Part shown: in pieces, positions 1,835 through 32,000 of the stretch
How the letters are laid out: every line of letters starts with the position of its first letter
How positions within the stretch are numbered: the stretch's first letter is position 1
DNA from: an uncultured Desulfobacterium sp.
GTDB taxonomy: Bacteria > Desulfobacterota > Desulfobacteria > Desulfobacterales > Desulfobacteraceae
NCBI GenBank assembly: GCA_963675615.2
Contig: CAXXTD010000001.1
Location: 1,229,210 to 1,261,209, forward strand
Direction of reading: 5' to 3'
Length of the DNA stretch: 32,000 bases
Notes under the pieces: model-generated
Seen by the model: the letters and a program-made list of their open reading frames with translations, nothing else
Database searches by the model: none
What the model was told of the DNA's origin: nothing
Position numbers and translations under genes: made by a program

Positions 1835-2623
1835 GTGAAATGCCATGAAATAGACTACGAAATCTTTGGAAACGACCTGCAGGCCGTGGAGGTGGAGCTT
1901 GACCCCAATGAAACCGTTGTTGCCGAAGCCGGCGCCATGAACTGGATGGACGACGGAATTTCGTTTGAGGCAAAAATGGGTGATGGCTCCCAACCGGACA
2001 GGGGACTGTTTGGCAAACTGCTGGACAGCGGAAAAAGGATGATCACCGGTGAATCGATCTTCATCACCCACTTTACCAACATTTCCAACGCTAAAAAAAG
2101 AGTGGCTTTCGGCGCCCCCTATCCGGGCAGGATTGTTCCCCTGGATCTGGGCAACCAGGGTCAGGAACTTCTGTGCCAGAAGGACGCCTTTTTGTGTGCA
2201 GCCCTTGGGACTGAAGTCTCCATAGCCTTTACCCAGCGACTGGGCGCCGGTTTCTTTGGCGGGGAAGGATTTATTCTCCAGCGCCTCAGGGGGGATGGCA
2301 TGGTCTTTGTCCACGGGGGCGGCACCATTGTCAAAAAAGAGCTCAACAACGAAACCCTCCTGGTGGATACGGGCTGCATCCTTGGATTTTCACCGGGTAT
2401 TGATTACAATATTCAACGATCCGGCAACCTCAAGTCCATGTTCTTCGGCGGGGAAGGGCTGTTTCTTGCCACCCTCAAGGGAACAGGAACGGTCTATCTC
2501 CAGACCCTGCCGTTTTCACGCATGGCAGACCGCATCCTCCAGCATGCACCGGCAACCGGCGGAAAGACCAAGGGAGAAGGTTCAGTACTTGGGGGAATCG
2601 GGCGAATGTTTGACGGCAATTAG
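1835..2623 (+). CDS. TIGR00266 / AIM24 (DUF124) family protein
   Basis: GTG start at 1835, six nt after AGGAGG (1823-1828). The sequence ([38 protein letters not shown]...[25 protein letters not shown]...[26 protein letters not shown]) is typical of this family. Confidence 0.85.
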
Positions 2624-2700
2624 CCCACGGCATTTGTCAATTATTCTATTTTTTTCGCATAAAAACAGGCAATTTAACCACATTACAAAGGAAAAGCCCC

Positions 2701-4758
2701 ATGGGTAAGATGGGTTTAAAGACAAAACTTCTTCTGTCAATCTGTAGCATCGTACTAGTATCGTTGACGGCCTCCATCTCGATCATAACAATAAAGACCT
2801 ATGCCTCGTCAAAACAGATGGCCATGGACATCACCATGGCAATGGCCAAAACAAATGCCACCAATATTCAGGCTGAACTGGAAAAGGCTCTGAACGGGGC
2901 CCGGAGCCTGGCCAAACTCTTTACCAGCCTCAAAGACCTGAAAACCGTACCGGAACGAGAGGACCTCAGCCAGATCATGAAGCAGACCCTTGTCAAAGCC
3001 CCTGATTTTGACGGGGTGTGGACCGTGTGGGAACCCAATGCCCTTGACAACCGGGACAGTGAGTTTGCAGGTAGCGAGGGCCATGATGGAACCGGGCGGT
3101 TCATCCATTACTGGAACACAAATGGCGGCCTCCACCTTGAGCCTGCAGTGGAGTATGAAGACGGAACCACAACCGGATACTATACCAAACCAAGGGCTAC
3201 AAACAAAGAGACGATCATGGAACCGGTCACCTACTCCATCGCAGGTCAACAGATAACCGTTGTCAGCGCCTGTGTGCCCATGACCTTCAAAGACCGCTTT
3301 GTCGGGGTCACGGGGTTTGACTTTTCCATGGAAAAAATGCGGGAGATGGTTTCAAAAATCAAACCCTACACCAGCGGATATGGTTTTCTGCTGTCAGACA
3401 CGGGGCTTATCGTGGCCCATCCTGAAAAAACGGTGATCGGTAAAAACATCAAGGAATTTGTCTCACCAGAAACCTACAACAGCATCCTGCAGGGGAAATC
3501 GGCAGTCCAGGAGTTTGTGTCTGCCAAGACCCACAAAAAAAGTATTTTTGTATTTGCACCCATCTCCCCCGGCAAAACAGGAACCAACTGGAGCCTGGCC
3601 GTGTCCGCTCCGGTTGATGAAATCATGGCAGATGCGATCACCCTTCGCAACATCAGCATCGCCATTGCCGTGGTCACTCTGGTGATACTGTTTGCCGCCA
3701 TTTATTTTATTGCCGGCGCCATTATTGTCAAACCCATCAATCTGGTACTGTCGGGCCTTTATGACATTGCCGAAGGTGAAGGGGACACCACAAAACGCCT
3801 CGAGGTGACATCCCAGGATGAAATCGGAAAACTTGCAGGGGCATTTAACCTGTTCATGGAACGACTGCAGGGTCTGATCAGAACAATCACTGGCGACGCC
3901 CGTACCGTCGATGATTCAGCATCAACCCTTGTTGAAATTGCAGGGGGCATGTCCCAGGGCGCCAGCGACACCTCTGAAAAATCAAGTACGGTTGCCGCAG
4001 CAACCGAAGAAATGAGTTCAACCATCTCATCACTGACGCGGGCAATGGAAGATGCCAGGGCCAACATCAACATGGTGGCATCTGCAACTGAAGAGATGAC
4101 CGCCACCATCAATGAAATTGCCGGCAACTCTGAAAAGGCAAGGGAAATGAGTCAAAAGGCCGTGGCCAAGGCGGGAAATGCCAGCACCTCCATGGCAGAA
4201 CTTGGCAGAGCAGCCCAGGAGATAGGGATGGTGACTGAAACCATAAACGACATTTCTGAACAGACCAACCTTCTGGCCTTGAATGCCACCATTGAGGCCG
4301 CAAGGGCCGGTGAGGCCGGCAAGGGGTTTGCCGTTGTCGCCTCTGAAATCAAGGAGCTTGCACGACAGACGGCCCAGGCCACCCGTCAAATTCAGGAAAA
4401 AATTGAAGGGGTACAGTCAACGGCCATGGGAACGGTCAACGAAATCAAGGATGTTTCAACGGTGATCACCGATGTAAACGACATCGTAACCACCATTGCC
4501 TCAGCCGTTGAAGAGCAGTCCATTGCCACGGCCGAAATATCGGACAACATCGGTAACGCCTCAACCGGCATCGGCGAAGTTGGAGAGAACATGAATCAGC
4601 TCAATGACGCCTCCGATGAAATCGCCAGGGATATTGCCCATGTAAACCAGGCGGCAAAAGAGATGTCAACCAGCAGCAGTGCGTTAAATGACAAGGCGCT
4701 TGGACTTGCTGAACTTTCAGGCAGGCTCAGCAAGATCATTGGAGGGTTCAAGGCTTGA
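2701..4758 (+). CDS. methyl-accepting chemotaxis protein (TM - periplasmic Cache-type sensor - TM - HAMP - MA signalling domain)
   Basis: 685 aa. There is an N-terminal TM helix and a second TM ([26 protein letters not shown]), followed by HAMP ([17 protein letters not shown]). The invariant MCP hairpin [35 protein letters not shown] is present. Confidence 0.95.
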
Positions 4759-6726: not shown

Positions 6727-8433
6727 TTACAAGGGGTAAACCGTTTTTTTCCGCTTTGCCCGGTCCCCGGCATCTGTTTCCCCCACCCCCCGGAGGGTAA
6801 TTCCGGCCAGGCCCGAAAGAAACAACGAGACCAGGGATGTGGAAACCGGATGATCAAACACCGTGCCGTCGCCAGTGAACCCCTGGATGCGTCCATGGGC
6901 AAGAAAGCCCGCCACCAGGAGTTTTCCGGCCTCCCTGCGGTTGGAAGGATCGACCCTGGATCTGCTGCCATGGGTCGATCCTGGGTCGGGCAGATCATCC
7001 TCGTCCTTCAACGCCTTCATGAAGTTGAGCAGCCGGGCAAGCCGCAACAGGGTAGCCGCCTCGATCCGTGTGGTGGTGTCGGAAATGGGAAAGGCAGTGG
7101 ACCGCATCCGTTCAAAATCCGGGGGAAGAAGCCCCCTCTGTCTGCACACCCCGAAATCATGGCTTCCCGGTGCCGGATAAAAAATGGACAGCCCCACCAG
7201 GGTCCGCCTGGCCCCGAGGTAAACCAGATCCCTGACCGACTGGCGGGGATCCTGGCCCGGTGCTGCGGCAATAAGGTAGGACACCGCCTCAAGCCCGAGG
7301 GTTTCTGCACTTTCAAGGCAACGGTCAAGGGCCCGGCCTACGTCCGGTCGCTTGAACCGGGCCAGCTGCTCCTTACAGGTGGAACCCAGCGAGAGGTTCA
7401 AGGTCCTGAATCCCGCCTGCTTCATGGCAGAGATCATCCCGTGATCCAGGGAGGGCGCATAGAGCCCGTTCATGGCCCGAAGTTCCAGCTTCCGGGAACC
7501 GTACCGGGCTGAAATTTCATCCAGGAGCGAGAGAAACCAGCCCCGGTCAAGGCTTAAATTTTCATCCTCAAAATCGATAAAACCGACATCCTGGCTGTCC
7601 ATCTGAACCTCAAGCTCGGCCATGACCGAGGCCACCGACCGCCGACGAAAGGGGGCATGGGCCGATGAGGCCCCAAGACAGCAGTAGGTGCAGTGCATGG
7701 GACACCCCCTTGCCGTGACAACACTGATGCTTCCCCGTTTTTTCCGCCGGTAAAACGACTGATCCACCAGCCGGGTGGCAGGCAGGGGGGTACGGTCAAG
7801 GTCATTGATCCAGGCAGGTTCGCCCACATAAAGGGAGGCGTCGGGCCGGCGGAAAACGATCCCAGGCACCGATTCAAGGCCGCTATTTTTTTTAATGGCC
7901 AGGGCAAGCAGGGCCATGGACGCTTCCCCTTCCCCCCGGAGCACAAAATCCACGGCCTCGCACGCCATGGCTTCCCTTGGAAATACCGTGGGATGGTGAC
8001 CGCCCATGACCACACGGCAATTGGGCCAGAAGCGCTTGACAGCCCGTGCCGTGGCCATGGCATCCCTGGAATAGGCCGTGAAAAGTGAAGAGATGCCCAC
8101 AAGGAACGGCTGTTTGTCCCTTGCCCGGGCACCGATGTGCTCAAAGCTGTAACCGTAGTGGCGAAAGTGGTGGAACAGGGCAAAGGGTGACAGGTCTTCC
8201 CGGCCATAAAAGGCGTCAAGATCTCCCAGGGTATCGGGGGGTTCAATGATCCGGGATTTTTTAACGGCAAGGCCGTCCACAATGGAGACCGAAAACCCAT
8301 TTTCATCCAGGACGGCGGCAATGCAGGCAAGACCATAGGGAACGGTCCGCTTGGCCGTAAGGTAGAACTCCTCCATGGGCGGCTGCACCAGGAGCACGTC
8401 GCACCGGGATGCCTGGACGGCAGACAGACTCAA
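6727..8433 (-). CDS. B12-binding domain-containing radical SAM protein (class B), function unknown
   Basis: N-terminal Rossmann-like B12-binding region (DVLLVQPP...PFLVGISSLFT...VVMGGHHPT). Radical SAM cluster motif ARGCPMHCTYC (Cx3Cx2C). The start is uncertain: TTG 8433 (TTGA overlap with the upstream stop) or GTG 8397. Confidence 0.88.
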   Translation of the reverse strand: MSLSAVQASRCDVLLVQPPMEEFYLTAKRTVPYGLACIAAVLDENGFSVSIVDGLAVKKSRIIEPPDTLGDLDAFYGREDLSPFALFHHFRHYGYSFEHIGARARDKQPFLVGISSLFTAYSRDAMATARAVKRFWPNCRVVMGGHHPTVFPREAMACEAVDFVLRGEGEASMALLALAIKKNSGLESVPGIVFRRPDASLYVGEPAWINDLDRTPLPATRLVDQSFYRRKKRGSISVVTARGCPMHCTYCCLGASSAHAPFRRRSVASVMAELEVQMDSQDVGFIDFEDENLSLDRGWFLSLLDEISARYGSRKLELRAMNGLYAPSLDHGMISAMKQAGFRTLNLSLGSTCKEQLARFKRPDVGRALDRCLESAETLGLEAVSYLIAAAPGQDPRQSVRDLVYLGARRTLVGLSIFYPAPGSHDFGVCRQRGLLPPDFERMRSTAFPISDTTTRIEAATLLRLARLLNFMKALKDEDDLPDPGSTHGSRSRVDPSNRREAGKLLVAGFLAHGRIQGFTGDGTVFDHPVSTSLVSLFLSGLAGITLRGVGETDAGDRAKRKKTVYPL

Positions 8434-15626: not shown

Positions 15627-17730
15627 TCAAGCCCCCTTGCCGGCCTGGGCCTGTATGGCCGTGATGGCTACCGTGTTGACAATGTCCGGAACCGTGCAGC
15701 CCCGGCTCAGGTCGTTGATGGGTTTGTTCAACCCCTGGAGAACGGGACCGATGGCCACGGCTTTTTCCGATGCCCGCTGCACTGCCTTGTAGGTATTGTT
15801 GCCCGTGTTCAGGTCTGGAAAGATAAACACCGTGGCCCTTCCTGCCACCATGGAATCGGGCAGTTTTGTCTTTGCAACCTCAGGATCAATGGCAGCATCG
15901 TATTGAAGGGGGCCTTCAATGGGCAGGGACGGCATCATCTGCCGGGCCAGCAGGGTCGCCTGGATCACCTTTTCCACATCCTTTCCCGTTCCTGAAGATC
16001 CCGTGGCGTAGGAAAGCATGGCAACCCTGGGATCAATACCAAAGACCGCTGCCGTCTTTGCCGACGTGACGGCAATCTCAGCCAGCTGCTCGGCCGTTGG
16101 GTTCGGGTTGATGGCGCAGTCACCAAACACCAGGACCCGATCCTTGAGACACATGAGAAACACCGACGAAACAATTGAGGCCCCCGGACAGGTCTTGATG
16201 ATCTGAAACCCGGGTGTGATGGTGTGGGCCGTTGTGTTGATTGATCCGGACACCATGCCGTCGGCATCCCCCTTGTGGACCATCATGGTACCAAAATAGG
16301 TGGGATCCACCATGGTATCCCCGGCCATGTCCAGGGTGACTCCCTTGGACTTGCGTATCTCGTAAAAGGTCTTGACATAATCTTCCAGAAGGGGACTCTT
16401 GTCCGGCTGCACAATGTTCGCCCCGGACAGATCCAGGCCCAGCGCCTGGCTCTTTTGATTGACGGCATCAACCCGGCCGAGCAGGGTGATGTCACAGACG
16501 CGGCGGCGTAAAAGAATCTCGGCGGCCCGCAGGATTCTCTCTCCAACGCCCTCGGGCAGCACGATATGCTGCCGTATCTTTTTTGCCTTTTCAATAAGAC
16601 CGAATTCAAACATCTGGGGGGTGATGCGCAAAGATTTCCTGGCAGCCAGTTTGTCTCGAAACTCTTCCGTATTTACATGGCTCTCAAACGTGCCAAGGGC
16701 CAGGGCTATCCGCTTGGGATTTTCCGGAGAAATCCTTCCCTGGAGCTGGTTCAGCGCCATTACCGCTGAATAGGTTGTTGCCCCTGACTGGAGAATGGGC
16801 ACGGGCACCCCCTTCCACCCCTCGATAAGCCGGATGATCGTTTCCGGCATCCGGATTCCCTCGGTCACCAGGATACCTGAGATATCGGGATAGGACGTGG
16901 AATACCGGGAGGCAAGACCGGTTAAGACAATGCTTGACCGATCCCCGGAACTCACGACCAGGCTGTCCTTTTTGATGTGGTTGAGAAAGTCCGGGGCCAG
17001 CATGGCGGCAATGACGCAATCCGAAATCTGGTTGTCCATGGCCTCCTGACCGTAGAGCACCTCTGCGCCGAAATAGTTTTGAACGTCCCGGAGGGTGGGC
17101 CGGCCCAGGCCATCCAGCTCCGGAATCGTGTAGACCAGGTTGTCGGACCGGTAAAGTTTCTCTTTAAGGATCGCCCTTAACTCTTCCAGGCAAAGGGGAT
17201 CCACGCGGTTGACCAGCACCCCAAGCACATCCACCCCTTTGCTTTTAAAACTCTCAATGGCAATCTGGTTGGCGCTGACCACCTCATCAATGCTCTTCTG
17301 AAAACCGTTGGACACCACCAGGGCAGGTGTACCGAGATCCGCCATGATGTCAGCGTTGATATCAAACTCAAAGGCTTCACTGCCGGCAGCGCAATCGGTG
17401 CCCTCGCACAGGACAAACCGGCACTTTTCCTCGAGCTGCTTGTACTTGTTGAGTATGGTCTCCATCATTTCAGACTGGCGGCCCGAATTGATCATTTTCC
17501 GCCTCTTCCATGGTATAGGCATAGGTTTCCTCGTACCTTAAGCCCATGTAGAAGTGGGACAGCACAAGATCAATGTCAAAATCTTTACCCTTGTTTCCAG
17601 GCGGATTGATAATCGGCCTGAAAAACCCGACAATTCGAATGTCCCTTAGCAGCAGCTGCATGATCCCGAGCACAATCAGCGATTTTCCACTCCGGGTCTG
17701 GGTGGATGTGATGTATAGACTTTTTGCCAT
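15627..17730 (-). pseudogene. pta: phosphate acetyltransferase, long (about 700-aa) form, split by a 1-nt frameshift (or sequencing error) into ORFs 17470..17730 and 15627..17522
   Basis: The C-terminal PTA domain is unmistakable (SGSINTTAHTITPGFQIIKT, VFGDCAINPNPTAEQLAEIA, ATVFIFPDLNTGNNTYKAVQR). The N-terminal part MAKSLYITSTQTRSGKS...AYTMEEAE continues as (K/N)MINSGRQSEMMETILNKYKQLEEKCRFVLCEGTD only after a frame change within GCGGAAAATGATC (about 17491-17503). The total span of 2104 nt equals 3n+1. Confidence 0.85.
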
Positions 17731-17774: not shown

Positions 17775-17790
17775 AGCAAAATAGATGCCA
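17775..17790 (-). promoter_or_regulatory. sigma54 (-24/-12) promoter upstream of pta
   Basis: The minus strand reads TGGCAT(17790-17785)-ctatt-TTGCT(17779-17775), against the consensus TGGCAC-N5-TTGCW. It lies 45 nt upstream of the pta ATG at 17730, in the 255-nt gap after the sigma54 activator gene. Confidence 0.6.
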
Positions 17791-17984: not shown

Positions 17985-19337
17985 CTACTTATATTCAGAC
18001 GGTTGTATCCCGTACTTTTTCACCTTATAATGGATGGCGCGTTTGCTGATGTTCAAAAGATCGGCAGCATGTTTCTGCACCCCCCTTGATTCTTTCAACG
18101 CCCGGATGATCGTATTCTTTTCGCTTTGTTCGATGGAAAATTCCTGTTGTGCGTCAGAAACCAGGGTCGCATCTTTCCGAATATTCTCAATCTGAAGGTC
18201 CCACGGCTGTATGGTATGGTCCTGGCAGAGAATGGTTCCGGCCTCAAGGGTGTTTTTCAATTCCCTGATGTTTCCGGGCCACGGGTGCTCCATGAGAACC
18301 TTCATGGTTGCATCTGCGATCCGGGTTGAGGCAATGCCCTGGGCCCGGGTATATCTATCCACAAAAAAATGTGACAGTACCGGAATATCCTCTTTTCGTT
18401 CCCTCAGGGGGGGAATGATCAGAGTAATGCCCTTTAACCGGTAATAAAGATCCTTTCGAAAGATGCCGGATTCAATATCCGCCTTTAGGTCGGCATTGGT
18501 CGCTGCAATGATCCTGCAATCGATGATTTCGTCCCTGACCGAACCGACCTGCCGAATTTTCCCATCCTCCAGGAATCTCAACAATCGGCATTGCATGTCC
18601 TGGGAAATGTTACCGATTTCATCCAGAAAAAGCGTGCCCTGGTCTGCAGCCTGGATCAGGCCCCGTTTATCTTTGACGGCATTGGTAAACGCCCCTTTGA
18701 GATGTCCGAACAATTCACTCTCCAGGATACCGTCCGGTGTAGAGCCACAGTCAACAATCCTATACGGATGGGACTTTCTGGTGCTGTTCTGGTGGATATA
18801 GCTGGCAATGCATTCTTTGCCCACACCACTTTCCCCCAGGATCAACACGTTGACCTGGGTGGCCGAGACCTTTTGAACCATGGAATAAAGCGCTTTCATG
18901 ATCCGGCTCTTACCCCAGTAATAATCACCGTCAAAGGCGATCGGACATTTTTTCTCTGCGACCTTGCGCTGGACAGCAAGGGTGTCATTGATTTTCTGGA
19001 TCAGCATCCGACCATCAAAGGGTTTTGAAATATAATCAACCGCCCCCTGCCTTATGGCATCCACCGCATCCGGGATGGTTCCGTATGCGGTCAGGAAAAT
19101 AACGGGAAGATCAGGAAGCTTTTTCTGAATCTGTGTGAATAATTCAATACCGCTCTTTTGGGGCATCTTTATGTCTGAGACGAGTAGATCAATGGACTGC
19201 GTCTCTAATATTTGAATGGCAGTTGCTGCATCCCTGGCCCTTAATACTGAAAAATCGGACGCTGTGAGTCTTGCATCAAGCACTTCAAGGATACTGGGGT
19301 CGTCATCAACGATTAATATTCTGGCACCGGCTGTCAT
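17985..19337 (-). CDS. sigma54-dependent response regulator (REC - AAA+ - Fis-type HTH; NtrC family)
   Basis: REC domain: ILIVDDDPSILEVL...DLLVSDIKMPQKSG. AAA+ domain: Walker A GESGVGKE, sigma54-contact loop GAFTNA, Walker B LFLDEIG. C-terminal HTH: AADLLNISKRAIHYKVKKYGI. The ATG overlaps the upstream stop (ATGA). Confidence 0.95.
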   Translation of the reverse strand: MTAGARILIVDDDPSILEVLDARLTASDFSVLRARDAATAIQILETQSIDLLVSDIKMPQKSGIELFTQIQKKLPDLPVIFLTAYGTIPDAVDAIRQGAVDYISKPFDGRMLIQKINDTLAVQRKVAEKKCPIAFDGDYYWGKSRIMKALYSMVQKVSATQVNVLILGESGVGKECIASYIHQNSTRKSHPYRIVDCGSTPDGILESELFGHLKGAFTNAVKDKRGLIQAADQGTLFLDEIGNISQDMQCRLLRFLEDGKIRQVGSVRDEIIDCRIIAATNADLKADIESGIFRKDLYYRLKGITLIIPPLRERKEDIPVLSHFFVDRYTRAQGIASTRIADATMKVLMEHPWPGNIRELKNTLEAGTILCQDHTIQPWDLQIENIRKDATLVSDAQQEFSIEQSEKNTIIRALKESRGVQKHAADLLNISKRAIHYKVKKYGIQPSEYK

Positions 19338-20044
19338 TGATTTTTCCTTTTTTCCTGAAGATCCTGGTCAATGCTTTCAAGGGTTGAAATCTGGTGCTGG
19401 AGGGTTTTGACAAGGGTCTGCAATTTATGGATCTCCCTGTTTTGTTTTGCGGTTTGGGCTTTCAACCCGGCAATCAGGTTTAAGGCAGCCGCTTGTTCTG
19501 CCGTCATCAGCCGGCTGCCGTGCTCCAGCACCCTGATCAGCAATTCAGAATCTTCAGGAGGAGCAACGCCCACCCCGGCACGGTCTGCCCGGGTGCTGTT
19601 CCGGTTGTAATGCTGCAGAAATGAAACCAGAACCCTATGGAATGCCGAGGCATCTCCGGCGGTGGCCAATGCCACACAGGCAAGACCAAAACGCCCATAA
19701 TTCTGATCTTCAGGATCTTCTGTCCGCTCTGACAGCGCCTCAAATTTTTCTCTGGCAAGGAGGTAATCACCACTTAAAAAGGCCTGGCGGGACTGTTTGA
19801 CCATCATATTTTCCAGGATCACCGTATCCTCTCGGATCACCGGATCTTCCCTGATCGTCGTACCTTCCCGGATCATCATCTCTTCCTCAATCATCATCTC
19901 TTCCCTGTTCACCGGATACCGGCTCTGGCATTGGCATCCAATCAGGACAAATCCCAGGCATAAATATAAAACAGGTCTGTACAACCCAAAGAGCAGGTGT
20001 GCATTAAATTTCAAACTGCCATCATTCACGTATGATCCAAGCAT
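19334..20044 (-). CDS. putative lipoprotein with hexapeptide-repeat linker, TPR-like middle and C-terminal coiled coil (QseG/YfhG-like position)
   Basis: Signal sequence ending in the lipobox LIGC (Cys37). Six tandem hexapeptides follow, then a coiled-coil C-terminus (EIHKLQTLVKTLQHQISTLESIDQDLQEKRK). GGAG lies 9 nt upstream of the ATG. The gene is sandwiched between the HK and RR genes. Confidence 0.65.
   Translation of the reverse strand: MLGSYVNDGSLKFNAHLLFGLYRPVLYLCLGFVLIGCQCQSRYPVNREEMMIEEEMMIREGTTIREDPVIREDTVILENMMVKQSRQAFLSGDYLLAREKFEALSERTEDPEDQNYGRFGLACVALATAGDASAFHRVLVSFLQHYNRNSTRADRAGVGVAPPEDSELLIRVLEHGSRLMTAEQAAALNLIAGLKAQTAKQNREIHKLQTLVKTLQHQISTLESIDQDLQEKRKNQ
19790..19897 (-). 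repeat. six tandem 18-nt (hexapeptide) coding repeats inside the lipoprotein gene
   Basis: Minus-strand units are atgatgattgaggaagag / atgatgatccgggaaggt / acgacgatcagggaagat / ccggtgatccgagaggat / acggtgatcctggaaaat / atgatggtcaaacagtcc. They encode MMIEEE MMIREG TTIRED PVIRED TVILEN MMVKQS. Confidence 0.8.
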
Positions 20045-20056
20045 CAGTCCAATCTC

Positions 20057-21523
20057 CTATACCGATATTTTTTTCTCCACAGGCAGGGTGAACGTAAAGG
20101 TACATCCTTTGTCGATATTATTTTCAACAAATATTCGACCACCGTGTGCCAGTACGATTCTCCTGGAGATATTAAGACCGAGACCGACCCCGCTCATGTG
20201 ATTTCTGACTTCCTCTGCCCGATAGTATCGCTTGAAAATCAAGCCATGCTTTTCCCTTGGAATGCCCGGGCCGGTGTCTGAAATATTGAAACTCAAAAAC
20301 CCATCCTCCCTGGATTTTGACAGCCAGATATCCACCTGGCTGTTTTCATCTGAAAACTTTATGGCATTGCCGATAATATTCACCAATACCTGCATAATCT
20401 CCCTGGCTTCCCCCATCACCCGGGGCGCCCCGGTCAGGGGGTGGACCTGCACATTCGTGTTCTTTATCTTTGCTGTGGCGTCAAGGGACTCAATGGCTTG
20501 AACAATAAGCGGGTTGGGATCAAGGGAGGCTGGATTTGATTTTTGAGTCCCGGCCTCGAGCATGGAAATGTCCAGCAGGTGGTTTAACAGGCTGGTGATC
20601 CGCGTAATTTCAGAACCGGCCAGTTTTAAAAACTTCTTTTGTCGTTCATTTACCGGGCCCAGAATCTCTTCGATAATCATGTTAACGGATTCCTGAACAG
20701 ACGAGAGCGGGGTTCTGATTTCATGACTCAAGGTGGCAATAAAGTCAGACCGGATATCTTCATCAGCCTTGAGTTGATGGCTCATATCATTGAATGCATC
20801 TGCAAGTTCCCCGAATTCATCCCTGGATGAAACAACCACCTCGTGGGCATAATTATCCATTGAGATCTGGCTCAACCCCAGCTTTAATTTATTCAACGGG
20901 ATTAACATTGATTTTGAAATAAACAAAATACCGAAAAATCCGACAACCATGGAGATACCGAATCCGATCACACCGTTACGTACAACCAGGCGGCTTTGAC
21001 GATTTATCCGGATAAGGCCCTGTTTGATTTGCAAATCGTTGGCATCCCTGGCTTTTGAAATAAGATCCATCCACTCAATAATCAGGTCTTCCTGGTCCCA
21101 TTGCGCAGGTAGATCCATGAAGGCATCCTTTGGACGAAATCCTGTAAACCTTTGATATGCCCCCCCAATTTTTCTCCAGGTTTTTGAGGATTCCAGGATG
21201 TCTGATTCCAGGTGGATGATTTGATCCAGGTCCCGGTTGTATGCCTTGCGGGCAGTTTCAAAAGATTCAAAGTACAATGTTTTTTTCAACAACCTGAATT
21301 TTTTATCATTGACCTCCATATCCATGAGGCTGTCCCGCAGATTCTCGGACAATTCCGCTATCTGGTTGTTTACGGTCACGATGCGGGATGATATTTTTGA
21401 CATATCCCGGACCTTTATAAACATATTCACGACTGTACCGTAAAATATGAGAATAAAAAGGGAAAAGAATAGAACCAGTTTTCTTGAGATGCCTAATTTC
21501 ATGGGCCTGCTGCCAATATCCAC
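20057..21523 (-). CDS. sensor histidine kinase (TM - about 150-aa extracytoplasmic region - TM - HAMP - HisKA - HATPase)
   Basis: H-box FIATLSHEIRTPL, N-box VNIIGNAIKFS, G-boxes ISDTGPGIP and GVGLGLNISRRIV. Two hydrophobic helices flank the sensor region. Confidence 0.92.
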   Translation of the reverse strand: MDIGSRPMKLGISRKLVLFFSLFILIFYGTVVNMFIKVRDMSKISSRIVTVNNQIAELSENLRDSLMDMEVNDKKFRLLKKTLYFESFETARKAYNRDLDQIIHLESDILESSKTWRKIGGAYQRFTGFRPKDAFMDLPAQWDQEDLIIEWMDLISKARDANDLQIKQGLIRINRQSRLVVRNGVIGFGISMVVGFFGILFISKSMLIPLNKLKLGLSQISMDNYAHEVVVSSRDEFGELADAFNDMSHQLKADEDIRSDFIATLSHEIRTPLSSVQESVNMIIEEILGPVNERQKKFLKLAGSEITRITSLLNHLLDISMLEAGTQKSNPASLDPNPLIVQAIESLDATAKIKNTNVQVHPLTGAPRVMGEAREIMQVLVNIIGNAIKFSDENSQVDIWLSKSREDGFLSFNISDTGPGIPREKHGLIFKRYYRAEEVRNHMSGVGLGLNISRRIVLAHGGRIFVENNIDKGCTFTFTLPVEKKISV

Positions 21524-21777: not shown

Positions 21778-21793
21778 TGGCATGACGGTTGCT
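21778..21793 (+). promoter_or_regulatory. sigma54 (-24/-12) promoter upstream of the glycosyltransferase gene
   Basis: TGGCAT(21778-21783)-gacgg-TTGCT(21789-21793) on the + strand, about 100 nt upstream of the ATG at 21895, in the divergent HK/GT intergenic region. Confidence 0.55.
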
Positions 21794-21894: not shown

Positions 21895-23292
21895 ATGGTA
21901 CCATGGGTTAATCCTGGGTTACTGGATAAACGAACGGGTAAAATGGCGGCCCTTATCTGCATAGCCATTGTTGTATTTGCAGCCTGGCAGGGTGTTATTC
22001 GTGGCGCCTCCATGGCGAATCTGCTGATCAGTACAACCTGGGGAAAGGGGTTTGTTCTATTTTGCGGAATTTTCATGATACTTACCTTTGCTGAATTTGT
22101 ATGGCGGGCCGTGCTGGTATTGATGTACAAGCCCATTCAAAGCTGCGATGACAATTTTCTTCCGGAATGTACAATCATTGTTCCGGCCTACAACGAAGGC
22201 AGGCAGGTTTTTGTAACCCTTGAAAGCCTTGCGGCCAGCAATTATCCCAGGGATAAATTCAAAATAATTGCCGTGGACGACGGAAGTGTGGATGATACCT
22301 GGAAATGGATTCAAAAGGCCAAAAAAAAGCTGGGAAGCAGGATTACCACCATCAAACAGCCCTGCAACAGGGGAAAACGCCATGCGCTCTATGCCGGGTT
22401 TAAACAAAGTATCGGAGAGGTTCTGGTCACCGTTGACAGTGACTCAACCGTTGATACGGACACCCTGAGAAATATGGTAACCCCCTTTGTTGTGGATCGA
22501 AACGTAGGCGCTGTTGCCGGGAATGTAAGGGTTTTAAATATGGACAAGGGGATTATCCCCAAAATGCTGGATGTGGTATTTGTCTACAGCTTTGATTTTA
22601 TCCGTGCCAGCCAGAGCATGGTCAAGGCAGTGATGTGCACCCCTGGCGCACTGTCTGCCTACCGCAGAAGTGTGGTCATGGATGTGCTGCACGAATGGCT
22701 GAACCAAAAATTCTGCGGTCAGCCGGCCAACATCGGTGAAGACCGTGCAATGACCAACCTGATCCTCAGACAGGGGCACCACGTCCTGTTTCAACAGAAT
22801 GCCAGGGTCTATACCGAAGCCCCGGTTAAGTATGTGACCCTTTGCAAGATGTATTTACGATGGGCAAGGAGCAATATCCGTGAAACCATTGCCATGAGCC
22901 GCTTTATCTTCAAACCCTTCCGCAAGGGTTCAAAGCTTGGGGCAAGAATCAACCTCGTGTCAGGCTGGGTGGCGCTGACCAAGGCCCAGCTTTTTCTTGT
23001 GATCACCTGGGGATTGATTGTCTGTCATCCCATGACCTTTGGCGTGAATACAATGCTTGGGGTCGTTATCTCTTCAAGTCTGGCTGCAACGATCTATGCA
23101 TGGAAATTTGGTCGTTTCTCTTGCCTGTGGGCCTTTGTTTATGGGTTTTACTTTTTTGTCTCTCTGTTCTGGATCAGACCCTATGCACTTCTGACACCCC
23201 ACAAATCAGGCTGGCTGACACGTCAGGTTGAATCTCGACCAGCCCATCCTGGGAAAAATATATTTTTGCAAAAAGCCAAAACAGCGGCCTAA
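21895..23292 (+). CDS. membrane-integrated processive family-2 glycosyltransferase (NodC/HasA/PgaC-like polysaccharide synthase)
   Basis: IIVPAYNEG, AVDDGSVDDT, VTVDSDS (DxD), GEDRAMT, and an LRWARS motif (QxxRW-type). Hydrophobic helices lie before and after the catalytic domain. The start may instead be the in-frame ATG 21943 (MAALICIAIV). Confidence 0.88.
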   Translation: MVPWVNPGLLDKRTGKMAALICIAIVVFAAWQGVIRGASMANLLISTTWGKGFVLFCGIFMILTFAEFVWRAVLVLMYKPIQSCDDNFLPECTIIVPAYNEGRQVFVTLESLAASNYPRDKFKIIAVDDGSVDDTWKWIQKAKKKLGSRITTIKQPCNRGKRHALYAGFKQSIGEVLVTVDSDSTVDTDTLRNMVTPFVVDRNVGAVAGNVRVLNMDKGIIPKMLDVVFVYSFDFIRASQSMVKAVMCTPGALSAYRRSVVMDVLHEWLNQKFCGQPANIGEDRAMTNLILRQGHHVLFQQNARVYTEAPVKYVTLCKMYLRWARSNIRETIAMSRFIFKPFRKGSKLGARINLVSGWVALTKAQLFLVITWGLIVCHPMTFGVNTMLGVVISSSLAATIYAWKFGRFSCLWAFVYGFYFFVSLFWIRPYALLTPHKSGWLTRQVESRPAHPGKNIFLQKAKTAA

Positions 23293-26859: not shown

Positions 26860-28281
26860 ATGGCCCAAAAAGAGAAAAACAAATGGCTGATCTTTACCTG
26901 TGTGGCCCTGGGGGTCTTCATGTCCACCCTGGACTCGAGCATTGTCAACATTGCCCTGCCCTATATCATGCAGGACATGGGAACAGGGCTTGCGACCATT
27001 CAATGGGTGGTGGTGATCTATCTGCTCACCATCTCCTCGCTGCTGCTCACCTTTGGCCGCCTGAGCGACATTCGGGGCAAACGGATGGTGTACACGGCTG
27101 GATTCCTTATATTTACAGTGGGTTCGTTCCTGTGCGCCATGGCCCGGACCCCCCTCGTTCTCATCATCTCCCGGGCCGTGCAGGCCTGCGGCGCCGCCAT
27201 GCTCATGGCATGCTCGCCGGCCCTGATCGTGGACACCTTTCCGGTCAGGGAGCGGGGCAAGGCCCTGGGCATGGTGGGCGCCGTGGTGGCAGCGGGTCTC
27301 ACGGCAGGTCCGGTGGCGGGCGGAATTCTCCTGGATCTGTTTTCATGGCGGTTCCTCTTCTACATCAACATCCCCATGGGCATTGGTGCAGCCCTGGCCG
27401 GTTTCCTGATCCTCAAAACCAGCCGGGCCGACCACGCCAATCTTGAACCCATGGACAAAACCGGCAGCCTCCTGCAGGGCATCAGCCTGGTCTGCCTGAT
27501 CGTGGTCCTTACCCACCTCAACCAGTGGCCGTTTTTCTCGGCCAGGACCATGGGGTTCCTGCTCCTATTTGCCATGGCCAGCCTGGGATTCATCTGGAAC
27601 GAAACCCGGACCCCCTATCCCCTGTTTGACCCGGCCCTGATAAAAATCCGGCTGTTTGTGCTGCCCGTCATCACCTCGGCCATCATGTTCGGGGCATTGT
27701 TTGTCATCGTATTCATGATGCCCTTTTTCCTGGTTCATCCCTGTGGCCTGTCGGCATCGGCCACGGGACTTGTAATGATCACCCCCTTTGTCCTGCTTTT
27801 CTTTATCAGCCCCCTGTCGGGCGTCCTTTACAACCGGACCGGTTCAAGACTTCCCTGCACCCTGGGAATGACAATTCTGGCCCTGGCCCTGCTTGCATTT
27901 ACCCGGGTCAAGGCATCCTCGGGCATGACCGCCATTGTATGGTGCCTGGCCCTGGCCGGCACGGGCACCGCCCTTTTTATTTCACCCAACAACACTGCAG
28001 CCATGGGAGCTGTTCCAGCCAACCGCCGGGGCATTGCATCGGCTGCCGTGGCAACATCCAGGAACCTGGGAATGGTCATGGGCGTTGCCATTGCAGGATT
28101 GATCTTCACCAGCACTTTTGCCGGTCTCAACCATGGCATTCCCTTTAAAACATACTCATTGGCCGTGGAGCCGTTCTTCATGGCAGGGTTTCACAGGGCC
28201 ATGGCCGCAGGGGCACTCATGGCATTCCTGGGCAGCCTCCTATCGTTTTTACGGGGGGATGACCGGCCCGGCATTCATTGA
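26860..28281 (+). CDS. MFS transporter, DHA2 (EmrB/QacA-like) drug:H+ antiporter type
   Basis: 473 aa and highly hydrophobic, with about 14 predicted helices. MFS motif A-like GRLSDIRGKRMV. Starts 18 nt after the uvrA stop. Confidence 0.88.
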   Translation: MAQKEKNKWLIFTCVALGVFMSTLDSSIVNIALPYIMQDMGTGLATIQWVVVIYLLTISSLLLTFGRLSDIRGKRMVYTAGFLIFTVGSFLCAMARTPLVLIISRAVQACGAAMLMACSPALIVDTFPVRERGKALGMVGAVVAAGLTAGPVAGGILLDLFSWRFLFYINIPMGIGAALAGFLILKTSRADHANLEPMDKTGSLLQGISLVCLIVVLTHLNQWPFFSARTMGFLLLFAMASLGFIWNETRTPYPLFDPALIKIRLFVLPVITSAIMFGALFVIVFMMPFFLVHPCGLSASATGLVMITPFVLLFFISPLSGVLYNRTGSRLPCTLGMTILALALLAFTRVKASSGMTAIVWCLALAGTGTALFISPNNTAAMGAVPANRRGIASAAVATSRNLGMVMGVAIAGLIFTSTFAGLNHGIPFKTYSLAVEPFFMAGFHRAMAAGALMAFLGSLLSFLRGDDRPGIH

Positions 28282-28348
28282 TCCGCCCTTACCTTTACCG
28301 GGCAGATTTACAAAATGACATGTAAACTGACACAGATTGCATTGCTTC

Positions 28349-28371
28349 CCCTATCCACAAAGGGGATAGGG
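28349..28371 (+). other. GC-rich stem-loop downstream of the MFS gene
   Basis: CCCTATCC (28349-28356) pairs with GGATAGGG (28364-28371) around a 7-nt loop. No U-tract follows on either strand, so its role (terminator or protein-binding palindrome) is undetermined. Confidence 0.35.
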
Positions 28372-28431
28372 CCCCCCGGTTCACAACGTATTCGGAGGTG
28401 AATTTCAAATCTTTCTCCCCCTGAATTTACT

Positions 28432-28447
28432 TGGCATAATCTTTGCT
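28432..28447 (+). promoter_or_regulatory. sigma54 (-24/-12) promoter upstream of the YcaO gene
   Basis: TGGCAT(28432-28437)-aatct-TTGCT(28443-28447). The expected start site at about 28457 sits virtually on the first ATG of the ORF (28460). Confidence 0.6.
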
Positions 28448-28486
28448 GACATTACTTTAATGATAAAAAACCAAGGAGACGTATCT

Positions 28487-30199
28487 TTGACAGAAACCCT
28501 GGAATATACCTTAACCCTGACCGACACCCAGCTTGCCACCGGTTTTTTCAAAGCCCTTCCCGCTTTTGAACCCTCCCTGGAACAGGCCCTTGCCCTGCTC
28601 AATGTCCGGCCCATGGACCAGTTTCTCCACCAGCATGCCCTGGACCTCATGGCCGATTCAAACCCGGAGCAGCTGGCGGCGTTCATCACCCGGGCAAAGG
28701 CTGAAAACAACATGGTTTTAAAGGCCCTGGCCTGCGAACAGCTCCTCCTGTCCCACGCCGTTCCAAAGGTAAAACAATTTTTTTCAAGTCAGACCCTTGC
28801 TGAACTGTGCCACCACACCCCCCTGGTGGATATCCGGTCGGCCCTGATGCCCAACCACCGTCTCCACAGGGGCTGGATCAGAATATTCAGGGCCAACATG
28901 GTTGAGCATACCCCCCTTCCCCCCCTGGAAGAAACAGGCCTTCCCCCCATCTGCCAGGGGGAATGCAGGGTCAGCCACCTGCCCCCCACGACCATTGCTG
29001 AACTGGGGCCGGTCAAAGGCAGAGACACCGGCAGCAAGGAGAAATTCACCCTTGAACAGACCGCCCGGACAGCCATGGAACGGCTTGAAAAAGCCGGCGT
29101 CAGGTTCGAGGAGGAGATGCGCCACGAATCAAGCCTGAGCCCGTTTGCCCTGCTCAGGCGATGGCAGTTTTCCACAACCACCACCAACCGCCGGAACCGG
29201 TTCACCCTCCAGGGCCCCCAGACCAGCTATGGCAAGGGCCTCTCCCTTGAGCATGCCAGGGCCTCCCTTGCCATGGAGATGGTAGAACGGTGCTCGGCCT
29301 TTGCCACGATCTCGGACAAGGAGGTGGTGGGGTATGCAACACCCTATCCCCTGACCCGGGCCACATACCAGGAGCTCCTGGACCAGGGGAAAAAAGCGTT
29401 GAATCCCCAAGATTTGGCCCTTGAGGTGAACTACAATGACGAACCCCTCCACTGGATAGAGGGATCAACTCCTGGAACGAACGGCCTGAAACCGGCCATG
29501 GTACCGGTCCAGGCCCTGTTCCTCTTCTGCAACCTGGATGAAACCGCCCTGTTTTCCGGCCTTGGCTCCACGGGGCTGGCTTCGGGTAACACCATGGAAC
29601 AGGCAAAGGTTTCCGCCCTCCTCGAAGTGGTGGAACGCCACCAGGAGGCAACGGTTCCCTTTACCCCGGAAACCTGCTTTAACCTCATTCCCGGCAGCAG
29701 CGGTATCGCATCCCTCATGGACGGATACCGGGCCATGGACATACATCTCCAGTTCCAGGACCTGACACCAAAGTCGGGCATTCCCTGCTGCAAGTGCTTT
29801 GTCAGGGCCAAGGACGGCACCATCCACAAGGGAACCGCAGCCCACCTCAACGCCAGGCAGGCCATTGTCTCTGCCATGACCGAGACCCCCTTTCCCTTTC
29901 CCTCGGGACCGCCGTCGGCACAGGGAATGGCCGATCTCGTGCCGGTGGGGTACGACAACCTGCCCGACTATTCCACCAGCGACCATGGCCAGGATCTATC
30001 TCTGCTGGAAAAACTGCTGCTGGCCAACGGCAAACGACCCTATTATGTTGATCTGACCCGCAGGGACATCGGCCTTCCCGTTGTAAAGGCCCTGATCCCC
30101 GGAATGGATATCCTTGGAGATTTTGACCGGTTTTCAAGGGTTCACCCTGAACTGTTCCAGAACTATCTCGACCAGTTCAGTCGCCCCAACAACCAATGA
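28487..30199 (+). CDS. YcaO-domain protein with an uncharacterised N-terminal extension of about 190 aa
   Basis: The YcaO core spans roughly aa 195-579 of the listed ORF. It carries the two conserved ExxER ATP/Mg-binding motifs (LAMEMVERCS, LLEVVERHQ), STGLASGNTMEQA, and a C-terminal ALIPGMDILGDF. I prefer the start at TTG 28487, 8 nt after AAGGAG (28473-28478). The ORF-track ATG 28460 has no SD and coincides with the predicted sigma54 start site. Confidence 0.85.
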   Translation: MTETLEYTLTLTDTQLATGFFKALPAFEPSLEQALALLNVRPMDQFLHQHALDLMADSNPEQLAAFITRAKAENNMVLKALACEQLLLSHAVPKVKQFFSSQTLAELCHHTPLVDIRSALMPNHRLHRGWIRIFRANMVEHTPLPPLEETGLPPICQGECRVSHLPPTTIAELGPVKGRDTGSKEKFTLEQTARTAMERLEKAGVRFEEEMRHESSLSPFALLRRWQFSTTTTNRRNRFTLQGPQTSYGKGLSLEHARASLAMEMVERCSAFATISDKEVVGYATPYPLTRATYQELLDQGKKALNPQDLALEVNYNDEPLHWIEGSTPGTNGLKPAMVPVQALFLFCNLDETALFSGLGSTGLASGNTMEQAKVSALLEVVERHQEATVPFTPETCFNLIPGSSGIASLMDGYRAMDIHLQFQDLTPKSGIPCCKCFVRAKDGTIHKGTAAHLNARQAIVSAMTETPFPFPSGPPSAQGMADLVPVGYDNLPDYSTSDHGQDLSLLEKLLLANGKRPYYVDLTRRDIGLPVVKALIPGMDILGDFDRFSRVHPELFQNYLDQFSRPNNQ

Positions 30200-30268
30200 C
30201 AAAGGATGCCTGACCTGAAACGATCCACGGTAATCATATGAGGCTCGACACCCTGAAGCGAGTAAAAA

Positions 30269-32000
30269 ATGCAGCGTTTAAAATCCTTCCGGCACCCCAT
30301 TTTAATCGTTATCCTGCTGACCCTGATGACAACGGGGACAGCAATCCCGGATGAGGGTGACACACAGACAGAGAAACAAGCCCAGGAACAACGCACAACC
30401 CTTGATCCAGTACTGGTGACGGCCCGGGGCAGACAGAGCCTGGCCTCTGAAACCCCTGGGGGTGTGGGTGTCGTCGACCATCAAGAAATTTCAGCATTCC
30501 ATCCCCTAAGCCTTACCCATGCCGCTGTCCGCATTCCAGGCGTTGACAAATCATCGGACGCCGCCTGGGGATCGGCCATGACCATCCGGGGGCTTGGGAG
30601 AAACGCCTTGATTTTTCTGGTTGACGGGTGCCGGGTCAACACCTCAACGGACATCAATGCCCGGTTCGGCCTGATCAACCCCCTTGACATCGAGCAGATC
30701 GAGGTGCTCAAGGGGCCCATTTCAGCCCTCTACGGATCGGGCTCCACGGGCGGCGTTGTCAACGTCATCACCCGGACAGGAAAATTCACCCCAATGCCCA
30801 CCTGGAGCGGAGAAATCACCAACACCATTGCCTCCAATCCCCAGGGCAATGATTCCTTTGGACGGGCCACCTACCACAGCAAAAACCTATGGGTTTCTGC
30901 ATCGGCCGGTTTCCGTGATTATGCCTCCTATGAATCCGGCAGCGGTGAAAAGATCGACAACAGCCAGTTCGAGGATTTAAGTCTTAACGCAAGCCTTGGC
31001 CTGCGGGAAAATTCCCTCAACACCACCCGGTTCCAGGTCCAGCACCTCAGGGGCGAAGAGATCGGCATCCCCGGAAAGGGCCTGGCCCTGCCCGTCGGAC
31101 CGGATGTGACCTATCCCGACGTAAACCGAACCCTGATCAATCTCACCCACACCCTTGCCCCGGAAACCCCTTTGATTACAGAGTCAAGCCTCAACCTCTT
31201 TTACCAGAAAATTGAGCGACGGGTGCGCCTGGACCATTTTCCACCAGGGCCAATCTTACAATTAAGACCCCAGGCCGACCATGACACCTGGGGAGTAAAA
31301 TGGCAGAACACCCTCACCCCCGGAAACCACACCCTTGTTGCCGGTGTGGACATCTGGAACTGGGAAATTTCAAACTCAAACCGTTACAGGGAGTTTGCAA
31401 GCGGCCTGACCGGCGTGGACGCCTCTCTTGCCGATGTGGAGCAATTTTCCGGCGGCATGTTCATGGAAGATGAGTGGCAACTGGGTCAAACCGTCAGCCT
31501 CAACCTTGGGGCCCGCATGGACTACATCAGCGCGGACAGCCAGGATCTCTGCAACTGGATCACCCCCCCCACCCCATCCACGCCCATAACAATTGTACAG
31601 TCTGGACAAAGTTACAGCGACACCAGCTGGAACGCCCATGGGGGCGTCACCTGGAAATTCATGCCCGACTGGAACATGACCTTTATCACGGCCTCTGCCT
31701 TCAGGGCCCCGGACCTGATGGAGCGGTTCAAGTATATCAACCTTGGGGGCGGTGTCGAACTGTTCGGCAATCCAGACCTGGACCCGGAACGATCCCTGTT
31801 CCTGGAATACGGGCTCAACCATACCCGTGACAGGTTCACCGTCTCGGCCTCGGCCTATGTCAATTTTCTGGAAGATCTCATCACGGAAACCGTTGTGGAC
31901 GACACCACCCATGCAATGATGAACGTGGACAGGGCAAGGATCCAGGGAGGTGAGATCGACGCAGCCTGCTTCCTCACCCCCATGCTGACCGCAACGGCCA
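30269..32000 (+). CDS. TonB-dependent outer-membrane receptor (5' part; continues beyond the right edge)
   Basis: Absent from the ORF track because no stop falls in the window. Hand translation from ATG 30269 gives a signal peptide MQRLKSFRHPILIVILLTLMTTGTA and a TonB-box-like LDPVLVTARG. Plug motifs follow: IRGLGRNALIFLVDGCRVN and IEQIEVLKGPISALYGSGSTGGVVNVITR. Beta-barrel-like sequence then stays open to position 32000. Confidence 0.9.
   Translation, partial: MQRLKSFRHPILIVILLTLMTTGTAIPDEGDTQTEKQAQEQRTTLDPVLVTARGRQSLASETPGGVGVVDHQEISAFHPLSLTHAAVRIPGVDKSSDAAWGSAMTIRGLGRNALIFLVDGCRVNTSTDINARFGLINPLDIEQIEVLKGPISALYGSGSTGGVVNVITRTGKFTPMPTWSGEITNTIASNPQGNDSFGRATYHSKNLWVSASAGFRDYASYESGSGEKIDNSQFEDLSLNASLGLRENSLNTTRFQVQHLRGEEIGIPGKGLALPVGPDVTYPDVNRTLINLTHTLAPETPLITESSLNLFYQKIERRVRLDHFPPGPILQLRPQADHDTWGVKWQNTLTPGNHTLVAGVDIWNWEISNSNRYREFASGLTGVDASLADVEQFSGGMFMEDEWQLGQTVSLNLGARMDYISADSQDLCNWITPPTPSTPITIVQSGQSYSDTSWNAHGGVTWKFMPDWNMTFITASAFRAPDLMERFKYINLGGGVELFGNPDLDPERSLFLEYGLNHTRDRFTVSASAYVNFLEDLITETVVDDTTHAMMNVDRARIQGGEIDAACFLTPMLTATA

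Follow-up and report, generated by a model that had tools for sequence, protein, structure and literature searches.

A standalone YcaO-family protein with a private N-terminal domain in Desulfobacterota, and the local gene order around it

The YcaO gene and its product

The window analyzed here is a 32,000-nucleotide stretch of DNA from an uncultured Desulfobacterium sp. (GenBank assembly GCA_963675615.2, contig CAXXTD010000001.1, positions 1,229,210 to 1,261,209 of the forward strand), and its subject is a gene for a YcaO-family protein near the 3' end. YcaO enzymes use ATP for backbone-amide activation and have long been treated as tailoring enzymes of ribosomally synthesized peptides that are modified post-translationally (RiPPs). 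In the window the gene follows a major facilitator superfamily (MFS) exporter gene and a sigma54-type motif and precedes a TonB-dependent receptor gene, an arrangement that an earlier note, made from the sequence, had read as a possible system for a modified product that is secreted and re-imported. The neighborhood was compared across 80 homologous loci from different species, with flanks of up to 10 kb where the contig allowed. The family is a genuine YcaO with a new accessory domain, and the apparent three-gene system is ordinary synteny.

In the program-made list of open reading frames (ORFs) the gene appears as 28460..30199 (+), 579 aa counted from ATG. The true start is almost certainly the TTG at 28487 (28487..30199, +; 570 aa), with the upstream ATG at 28460 as the alternative, because a Shine-Dalgarno sequence (AAGGAG, 28473-28478) precedes the TTG, the 100% identical database protein P0001 is 570 aa long, and close relatives in the alignment keep the TTG and Shine-Dalgarno sequence but not the upstream ATG. 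The product has a predicted isoelectric point (pI) of 5.9. It consists of a family-specific N-terminal domain (residues 1-150; 28487..28936, +), delimited by AlphaFold2 (AF2) models and conservation, a Pro-rich linker of lower model confidence (residues 151-188; 28937..29050, +; predicted local distance difference test score (pLDDT) 71-84), and a complete YcaO catalytic domain (residues ~189-570; 29051..30196, +), assigned by Foldseek and PDB sequence matches. Pfam and residue conservation bear out the earlier description of a 570-579-aa protein with a C-terminal YcaO domain and both ExxER motifs, and together with the AF2 model they agree that the layout is the opposite of that in Escherichia coli YcaO, since the extra domain is N-terminal.

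The catalytic domain

The Pfam YcaO model (PF02624) is matched at 144.2 bits (cutoff 25.7; E 7.5e-42). The two ExxER motifs are E264-x-x-E267-R268 (29276-29290) and E380-x-x-E383-R384 (29624-29638), and residues E264, E267, R268, E380, E383, R384 and E466 are invariant in 198/198 full-length family members. A P-x-P-x-P sequence is internal to the domain (residues 468-472). The AF2 model, built from 115 homologs, has a pLDDT of 93.5 and a predicted template modeling score (pTM) of 0.94, and in Foldseek searches it matches the solved YcaO structures 6pe3, 4v1v, 7u58, 6cib and 4q85 (E 1e-17 to 1e-12), which are the YcaOs of Methanocaldococcus jannaschii, LynD, MusD, Methanopyrus kandleri and E. 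coli. Among the YcaO structures, M. jannaschii YcaO (6pe3; E 5e-17, template modeling score (TM) 0.76 of target) and LynD (E 1.8e-17) are matched best and E. coli YcaO most weakly (TM 0.39-0.40). Given the Pfam match, the confident model, the Foldseek matches and the invariance of the ExxER motifs and E466, the YcaO domain is real and looks active.

Placement among the described subfamilies is looser. The closest solved relative in the PDB sequence search is MJ1094 (8.7e-26), known as the TfuA-independent McrA thioamidase of M. jannaschii. The best NCBIfam match is TIGR03266 (McrA-glycine thioamidation), at 97.4 bits against a cutoff of 365 and covering residues 255-476 only. TIGR03604 (SagD/TOMM cyclodehydratase; TOMM, thiazole/oxazole-modified microcin) is matched at 82.4 bits, below its cutoff of 219. 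The E. coli-type model NF040716 scores 14.4 bits, far under its cutoff of 700, and the protein does not group with the housekeeping (RimO-associated) YcaO clade. C397 and P-C434-C435-K-C437-F were considered as an intrinsic Fe-S or sulfur-relay site, and the idea was rejected: this Cys cluster looked conserved in the first 28 sequences only, and in the wider family C435 is replaced by Y in 67 of 198 members and C437 by A in 36 of 198.

The N-terminal domain and linker

The AF2 model of the N-terminal domain shows a beta-hairpin at about residues 5-25 followed by eight helices, and its conserved residues include Y7, G19, F21, P25, P42, D44, P112, W130 and N137. The Pro-rich stretch HTPLPPLEETGLPPICQGECRVSHLPP spans residues 141-167. 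The first ~190 aa had earlier seemed to resemble no recognized domain, and hidden Markov model (HMM) searches and structure prediction agree: Pfam gives no match to the domain in any of 39 members, sequence and profile searches of the PDB find no sequence match, and Foldseek finds no PDB fold match (best E-value 0.65). With all three approaches negative, assignment as a RiPP recognition element (RRE), an E1-like fold or another known domain was rejected. A permuted version of the tetratricopeptide repeat (TPR) domain of E. coli-type YcaO was likewise rejected, since hhalign gives a probability of 1.3% against the TPR domain of a YcaO-TPR paralog.

When a profile of the N-terminal domain was run against 1.84e9 representative proteins, only 235 matches were returned. 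Among the matches listed, the domain always lies at the protein N-terminus, and the proteins are about 550-650 aa long or shorter. All seven longer proteins that were checked consist of the N-terminal domain and YcaO only, so that the suspected extra domains in longer family members proved to be insertions. Because the profile matches are confined to the N-termini of proteins with this two-domain composition, the architecture of the family is fixed and the N-terminal domain is private to it.

Within the linker of the window protein lies C156-x-G-E-C160 (window 28952-28966; GLPPICQGEC), in which C156 occurs in 48/198 and C160 in 45/198 members. The C-x-G-[ED]-C motif is limited to about a quarter of the family, a Desulfobacteraceae-like clade that includes the window; outside this clade the two positions are occupied by F, Y or V and by E, A or S, respectively.

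Extent of the family

Clustering at 90% identity divides the family into 721 clusters, which align with 96-98% of the query length at identities down to 44%, and relatives occur in at least 296 species when one genome is scanned for each. Every informative taxon label is Desulfobacterales, Syntrophobacterales or an older Delta-/Proteobacteria name. The family is restricted to sulfate-reducing Desulfobacterota and vertically inherited. Its median pI is 5.8 (range 5.0-8.0). A literature search found no description of a YcaO family with this N-terminal domain.

Gene neighborhoods

The TonB-dependent receptor gene (30269..32000, +; running past the end of the window) begins 69 nt after the YcaO stop codon, in agreement with the gap of about 70 nt given in the earlier note, and encodes a signal peptide, a TonB box, a Plug domain and a barrel (Pfam Plug and TonB_dep_Rec_b-barrel). 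The receptor is generic, with all NCBIfam matches under the subfamily cutoffs. Neither a terminator nor a sigma70-like promoter was called within 28100-30500, and the receptor may well be co-transcribed with YcaO in this organism as a lineage-specific arrangement. Conservation of the pairing was examined by tblastn with the window receptor and by HMM searching, in three rounds, of every ORF in the 80 loci. A receptor is adjacent and co-oriented in three of them (L003, L004 and L005, whose YcaO proteins are 70-72% identical to that of the window), but not in the closest relative (L001, 83%) nor in L002 and L016 (73-74%). The iterated HMM search added one further receptor only, 2.2 kb away on the opposite strand in L018, and left 76 of the 80 loci without one. 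The expectation of a conserved YcaO-receptor linkage was thus not borne out.

The gene order around the receptor is informative. In L003-L005 and in a further syntenic relative, L087, the order is MFS-YcaO-receptor; in the receptor-bearing relatives the next gene encodes an alpha/beta hydrolase, and in L001, L002 and L016 this hydrolase lies directly 3' of YcaO. Since the hydrolase adjoins YcaO when the receptor is absent, the receptor is an insertion into a syntenic block of UvrA, MFS, YcaO, [receptor] and hydrolase genes. Past the receptor in L087 there is nothing RiPP-like. A second, independent proximity of YcaO and a receptor, probably coincidental, was seen in a member of the Desulfosudaceae (L086:8639-13707, -), where a complete ExbB-ExbD-TonB-receptor-DUF4198-DUF4198 uptake cluster lies convergent to YcaO, 2.2 kb downstream; its receptor is 23% identical to that of the window.

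The gene upstream of YcaO encodes a DHA2-family MFS efflux permease (26860..28281, +; TIGR00711 235 bits, cutoff 230) and ends 150 nt before the sigma54-type motif, as the earlier note had stated. An MFS gene lies upstream of YcaO in 14/80 loci, all in the clade nearest the window. The same 14 loci retain other parts of a UvrA/F4/DUF1848/Dus block, with UvrA in six, and the MFS-YcaO linkage appears to be the general synteny of one clade.

The sigma54-type -24/-12 element, TGGCATAATCTTTGCT (28432-28447, +), is an exact TGGCAT-N5-TTGCT with the right spacing and lies 40 nt before the start codon. It predicts a transcription start near 28457 and a 5' untranslated region of ~30 nt that holds the Shine-Dalgarno sequence. 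The window contains three copies of the pattern (0.25 expected), all of them upstream of correctly oriented genes, and as a consensus match the element is a candidate promoter. The claim of a sigma54 promoter therefore stands as far as the exact motif is concerned, but not as a family trait: the motif was found in only 2/79 upstream regions (the window and L016), with a near-match in L002 and none in the other 76. The two further exact motifs lie at 17775-17790 (-), upstream of pta (15627..17522, -), and at 21778-21793 (+), upstream of a family-2 glycosyltransferase gene (21895..23292, +). Together they flank two genes, one for an NtrC-type activator (17985..19337, -) and one for a sensor kinase (20057..21523, -), between which lies a 236-aa ORF (19334-20044, -) without a Pfam match.

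Between the MFS stop codon and the sigma54-type element there is also a perfect 8+8 inverted repeat, CCCTATCC-N7-GGATAGGG (28349..28371), which is unique in the window, lies 61 nt upstream of the -24 element and has no T-tract. It could be bound by an enhancer-binding protein or other activator, or form an RNA stem where the MFS transcript ends. Rfam detected no riboswitch or other RNA between the genes.

The earlier note had remarked on the absence of the usual partners and of a convincing precursor ORF from the window, and this holds: neither the scanned window ORFs nor the Pfam-labeled surroundings of five diverse members include a gene for TfuA, an E1-like protein, a dehydrogenase or an RRE. 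When 1,213 neighboring ORFs from the 80 loci were clustered all against all, the commonest neighbor family was a generic sensor kinase, present in 22/80 loci. Small ORFs (15-75 aa) up to 2.5 kb to either side formed no genuine conserved family, and the clusters that seemed conserved were alternative-frame shadows of tatC and of the genes for the decarboxylase and the MFS permease. Across these loci the gene-neighborhood and small-ORF searches thus yielded neither a precursor-like ORF nor a conserved partner gene, and the YcaO family appears to have no such partner near the locus.

What does adjoin the gene varies by clade. Tight junctions (gap or overlap of 30 nt or less) involve tatA-tatC upstream in 12 loci, UDP-glucuronate decarboxylase upstream in eight and a PrmA-like methyltransferase downstream in six, and EF-P-family, IspD and cytochrome c3 genes lie near YcaO in some loci. 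In Desulfocicer vacuolatum and one divergent member the YcaO gene looks monocistronic; in D. vacuolatum DSM 3385, 924 nt without a called gene follow YcaO (L081:9702-10624) and 543 nt likewise precede it. The loci with tatA/B and tatC directly upstream (L023-L026, L028, L032, L038, L050, L070, L071, L075 and L077) include Desulfosarcina variabilis and D. alkanivorans, and a 4-nt overlap between the tatC stop and the YcaO start is frequent in the ORF calls, which suggests that YcaO is co-transcribed with the Tat translocase genes in this clade. The PrmA-like methyltransferase (270-284 aa; L022, at 2568-3416, L024, L028, L045, L051 and L075) overlaps the YcaO stop codon or lies no more than 25 nt from it. 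Only its catalytic half matches PrmA (TIGR00406, 102 bits, cutoff 183) and the substrate-binding N-terminus differs; the pairing could hint that YcaO and this methyltransferase share a protein target.

Two other observations concern genes further off. A Thermodesulfobacteriota metagenome-assembled genome carries a second YcaO of 590 aa with an N-terminal YcaO domain and C-terminal TPR (L020:5606-7378, -; 53.6 bits on the E. coli-type model, cutoff 700), 2.6 kb from its YcaO with the N-terminal domain (L020:9977-11701, +). Both types therefore coexist there and are not simple replacements for one another. In the window, a gene for a 568-aa B12-binding radical SAM protein lies ~20 kb upstream of YcaO (6727-8433, -), in the company of housekeeping genes (Rho, an aminotransferase and an RNase H-like protein), and nothing ties it to YcaO.

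Interpretation and alternative explanations

To our knowledge, the only known protein substrates of YcaO enzymes are McrA and, since 2026, uL16. The best explanation of the data, which we hold with somewhat better than even confidence, is that the gene product is a standalone, catalytically competent YcaO with a private N-terminal domain, which modifies a protein or peptide encoded elsewhere, and that the receptor, the MFS gene and the sigma54-type motif are local gene order. Much of the earlier interpretation is retained here, namely an orphan YcaO with an unrecognized N-terminal domain, with no canonical partner or precursor nearby and outside the E. coli (RimO/uL16) clade. The secreted and re-imported product system is not, as its receptor, exporter and sigma54 motif have no conserved linkage in the 80 loci. 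The alternative offered in the same note, a protein-modifying YcaO whose N-terminal domain recognizes the substrate, is compatible with all findings and is the one that we favor.

What we infer about the kind of substrate, the chemistry and the part played by the N-terminal domain can be put as follows. The substrate, whose gene would lie elsewhere in the genome, is most likely a conserved protein and not a hypervariable RiPP precursor. One of its backbone amides would be O-phosphorylated by the YcaO domain, and a nucleophile would then resolve the activated amide. The most plausible outcome would be a thioamide formed with free sulfide, because the hosts produce sulfide and no TfuA lies beside the gene; this would parallel the TfuA-independent YcaOs of M. 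jannaschii (acting on McrA) and E. coli (acting on uL16). An azoline, an amidine or hydrolysis would be other conceivable outcomes. The N-terminal domain is predicted to pack rigidly on the catalytic domain and may serve in substrate recognition or oligomerization. A protein target is favored because the standalone gene without adjacent TfuA, the vertical inheritance, the private domain and the housekeeping contexts together resemble the two known protein-directed YcaOs more closely than they do RiPP enzymes. E. coli YcaO thioamidates uL16 without TfuA (PMC13063428); the same authors note that TfuA/ThiS tends to be missing in YcaOs from high-sulfide organisms, and they regard further protein substrates as probable (PMC13063428).

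Taken one step further, the family could be a third protein-directed YcaO class, independent of TfuA and drawing on host sulfide, in which the N-terminal domain docks a conserved Desulfobacterota protein that receives a backbone thioamide or other amide-derived modification. We put this forward tentatively, as a possibility that falls short of an even chance. If true, it would mean that the core metabolism or the translation apparatus of sulfate reducers carries a post-translational modification not seen before. With its occurrence in hundreds of Desulfobacterales and Syntrophobacterales species, fixed architecture, unique accessory domain and lack of TfuA or a precursor nearby, the family is a well-defined candidate in the search for further protein substrates. 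Sulfate reducers are environmentally dominant, and finding the target in them could reveal a new backbone modification; it could also show how a new domain gives a YcaO its substrate choice.

It should be noted that several observations weigh against the interpretation of a standalone, protein-directed thioamidase. The 69-nt gap without a called terminator makes co-transcription with the receptor likely here and in three relatives, and a functional link specific to that clade is conceivable. Among syntenic relatives YcaO diverges somewhat faster (70-83% identity) than its neighbors UvrA (86-94%) and MFS (75-84%), and by this measure it does not appear to be an exceptionally constrained protein. 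The family is not strongly acidic (median pI 5.8) and hence lacks the electrostatic signature of uL16-type enzymes. Thioamide- and azoline-forming relatives are not discriminated by the model scores (TIGR03266 97 bits, SagD/TOMM 82 bits, both far below cutoff), and M. kandleri YcaO, the other McrA enzyme besides MJ1094, scores only 39 bits in the PDB sequence search. Finally, the searches for a precursor and TfuA were confined to the locus flanks.

This last point equally leaves room for a role in RiPP maturation, with the precursor peptide and possibly partner proteins encoded at a distant locus, as most characterized YcaOs act on RiPP precursors (PMC13063428) and the modeled N-terminal beta-hairpin and helices could in principle bind a leader. 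We nevertheless regard such a role as unlikely, given the full-length conservation and fixed architecture across two orders, the housekeeping operons (tat, PrmA-like and nucleotide-sugar genes) in place of biosynthetic clusters, the lack of an RRE or PqqD signal in Pfam, PDB-sequence and Foldseek searches, and the lack of a conserved small ORF within 2.5 kb. Rather improbable, in our view, is a functional analog of E. coli YcaO that carries out housekeeping thioamidation of uL16 or some other ribosomal protein in Desulfobacterota. The E. coli enzyme is indeed standalone, lacks TfuA and acts on uL16 (PMC13063428), and some clades of the present family are translationally coupled to a PrmA-like methyltransferase (6 loci) or lie beside an EF-P-family gene. 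Set against these parallels are the NF040716 score of 14 bits for a cutoff of 700, the different domain layout, with hhalign at 1.3% between the N-terminal domain and the YcaO-linked TPR, the family pI of ~5.8 compared with 4.4 for E. coli YcaO, the YcaO-TPR paralog beside the N-domain YcaO in L020, and a taxonomic range that is oddly narrow for a universal ribosomal target.

The arrangement that first drew attention, in which YcaO, the TonB-dependent receptor and the MFS exporter form one sigma54-controlled system for the synthesis, export and re-import of a modified peptide or metallophore, now looks very doubtful. The three genes are co-oriented, with a YcaO-receptor gap of 69 nt and no terminator called, their order recurs in L003-L005 and L087, and a sigma54-type motif stands 40 nt before the start codon. 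However, the receptor is absent from 76/80 loci, including the closest relative L001 as well as L002 and L016, and where present it is inserted between YcaO and the alpha/beta hydrolase that otherwise adjoins it; the MFS linkage (14/80) tracks the synteny of one clade; there is no precursor ORF, conserved small ORF or other biosynthetic gene; the receptor is generic, below the NCBIfam subfamily cutoffs; and the sigma54 motif is not conserved. With the receptor adjacent in 3/80 loci, the MFS gene in one clade and the motif in 2/79 upstream regions, the three genes do not constitute a conserved system. This serves as a caution, in that a suggestive exporter-enzyme-receptor arrangement dissolved once orthologous loci were compared. 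A non-catalytic, accessory or regulatory protein that keeps the YcaO fold has a precedent in E. coli YcaO, which was long seen only as a RimO accessory factor, but is extremely unlikely here, since all ATP/Mg-binding motif residues are invariant in 198/198 members and the full domain is modeled with very high confidence.

Comparison with known systems

The standalone, protein-directed YcaO that we favor most resembles M. jannaschii YcaO (MJ1094; PDB 6PE3/6PEU), which is the best PDB sequence match (8.7e-26) and among the best folds. Like this TfuA-independent, McrA thioglycine-forming enzyme, it stands alone without adjacent TfuA in a high-sulfide host, and as MJ1094 acts on a protein encoded elsewhere, the same is proposed for the N-domain YcaO. 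The two differ in that MJ1094 has 385 aa without an N-terminal extension, whereas the window protein adds ~188 aa of private domain and linker, reaches only 97 bits on TIGR03266 (cutoff 365) and belongs to Desulfobacterota. Being bacteria, Desulfobacterota are not expected to carry methyl-coenzyme M reductase (MCR).

With E. coli YcaO (the uL16 Met82 thioamidase; PDB 4Q84-4Q86; Rice et al. 2026, PMC13063428) the family shares a conserved, chromosomal, standalone gene without TfuA or a nearby precursor and a helical accessory domain fused to the catalytic domain, and that enzyme provides a precedent for protein substrates. In E. coli the YcaO domain is followed by a C-terminal TPR, whereas the extra domain of the window protein is N-terminal and not TPR-related; the E. 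coli enzyme is acidic (pI ~4.4) and complementary to basic uL16 (PMC13063428), whereas the N-domain family is not highly acidic; and model score (NF040716, 14/700 bits) and fold (TM 0.39-0.40) set the two apart.

The fused cyclodehydratases LynD and TruD also combine an N-terminal accessory region with a C-terminal YcaO, and there is a strong fold match over the YcaO part (E 1.8e-17). Their N-terminal part is E1-like/RRE, a similarity that Pfam, PDB-sequence and Foldseek searches do not find in the window protein, and in place of precursor, protease and oxidase genes the window YcaO has a housekeeping context. More broadly, TOMM/azoline cyclodehydratases are set apart by the sub-cutoff score and by the lack of partner genes, of an RRE or E1 signal and of a conserved small ORF at the loci studied, and the TfuA-associated thioamide-forming YcaOs by their adjacent TfuA, of which there is none among the scanned window ORFs or in the five contexts, while the 80-locus clustering shows no conserved neighbor family.

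In peptide-metallophore operons such as methanobactin mbn, biosynthetic genes are accompanied by those for a TonB-dependent receptor and an exporter, and the exporter, modifying enzyme and receptor of the window and three relatives follow the same order. Unlike those operons, the loci have no precursor or other tailoring genes and the receptor linkage is absent from 95% of them, so that the resemblance to metallophore operons is superficial. The enzyme family itself is a lead, concrete and open to testing, toward a third protein-directed YcaO.

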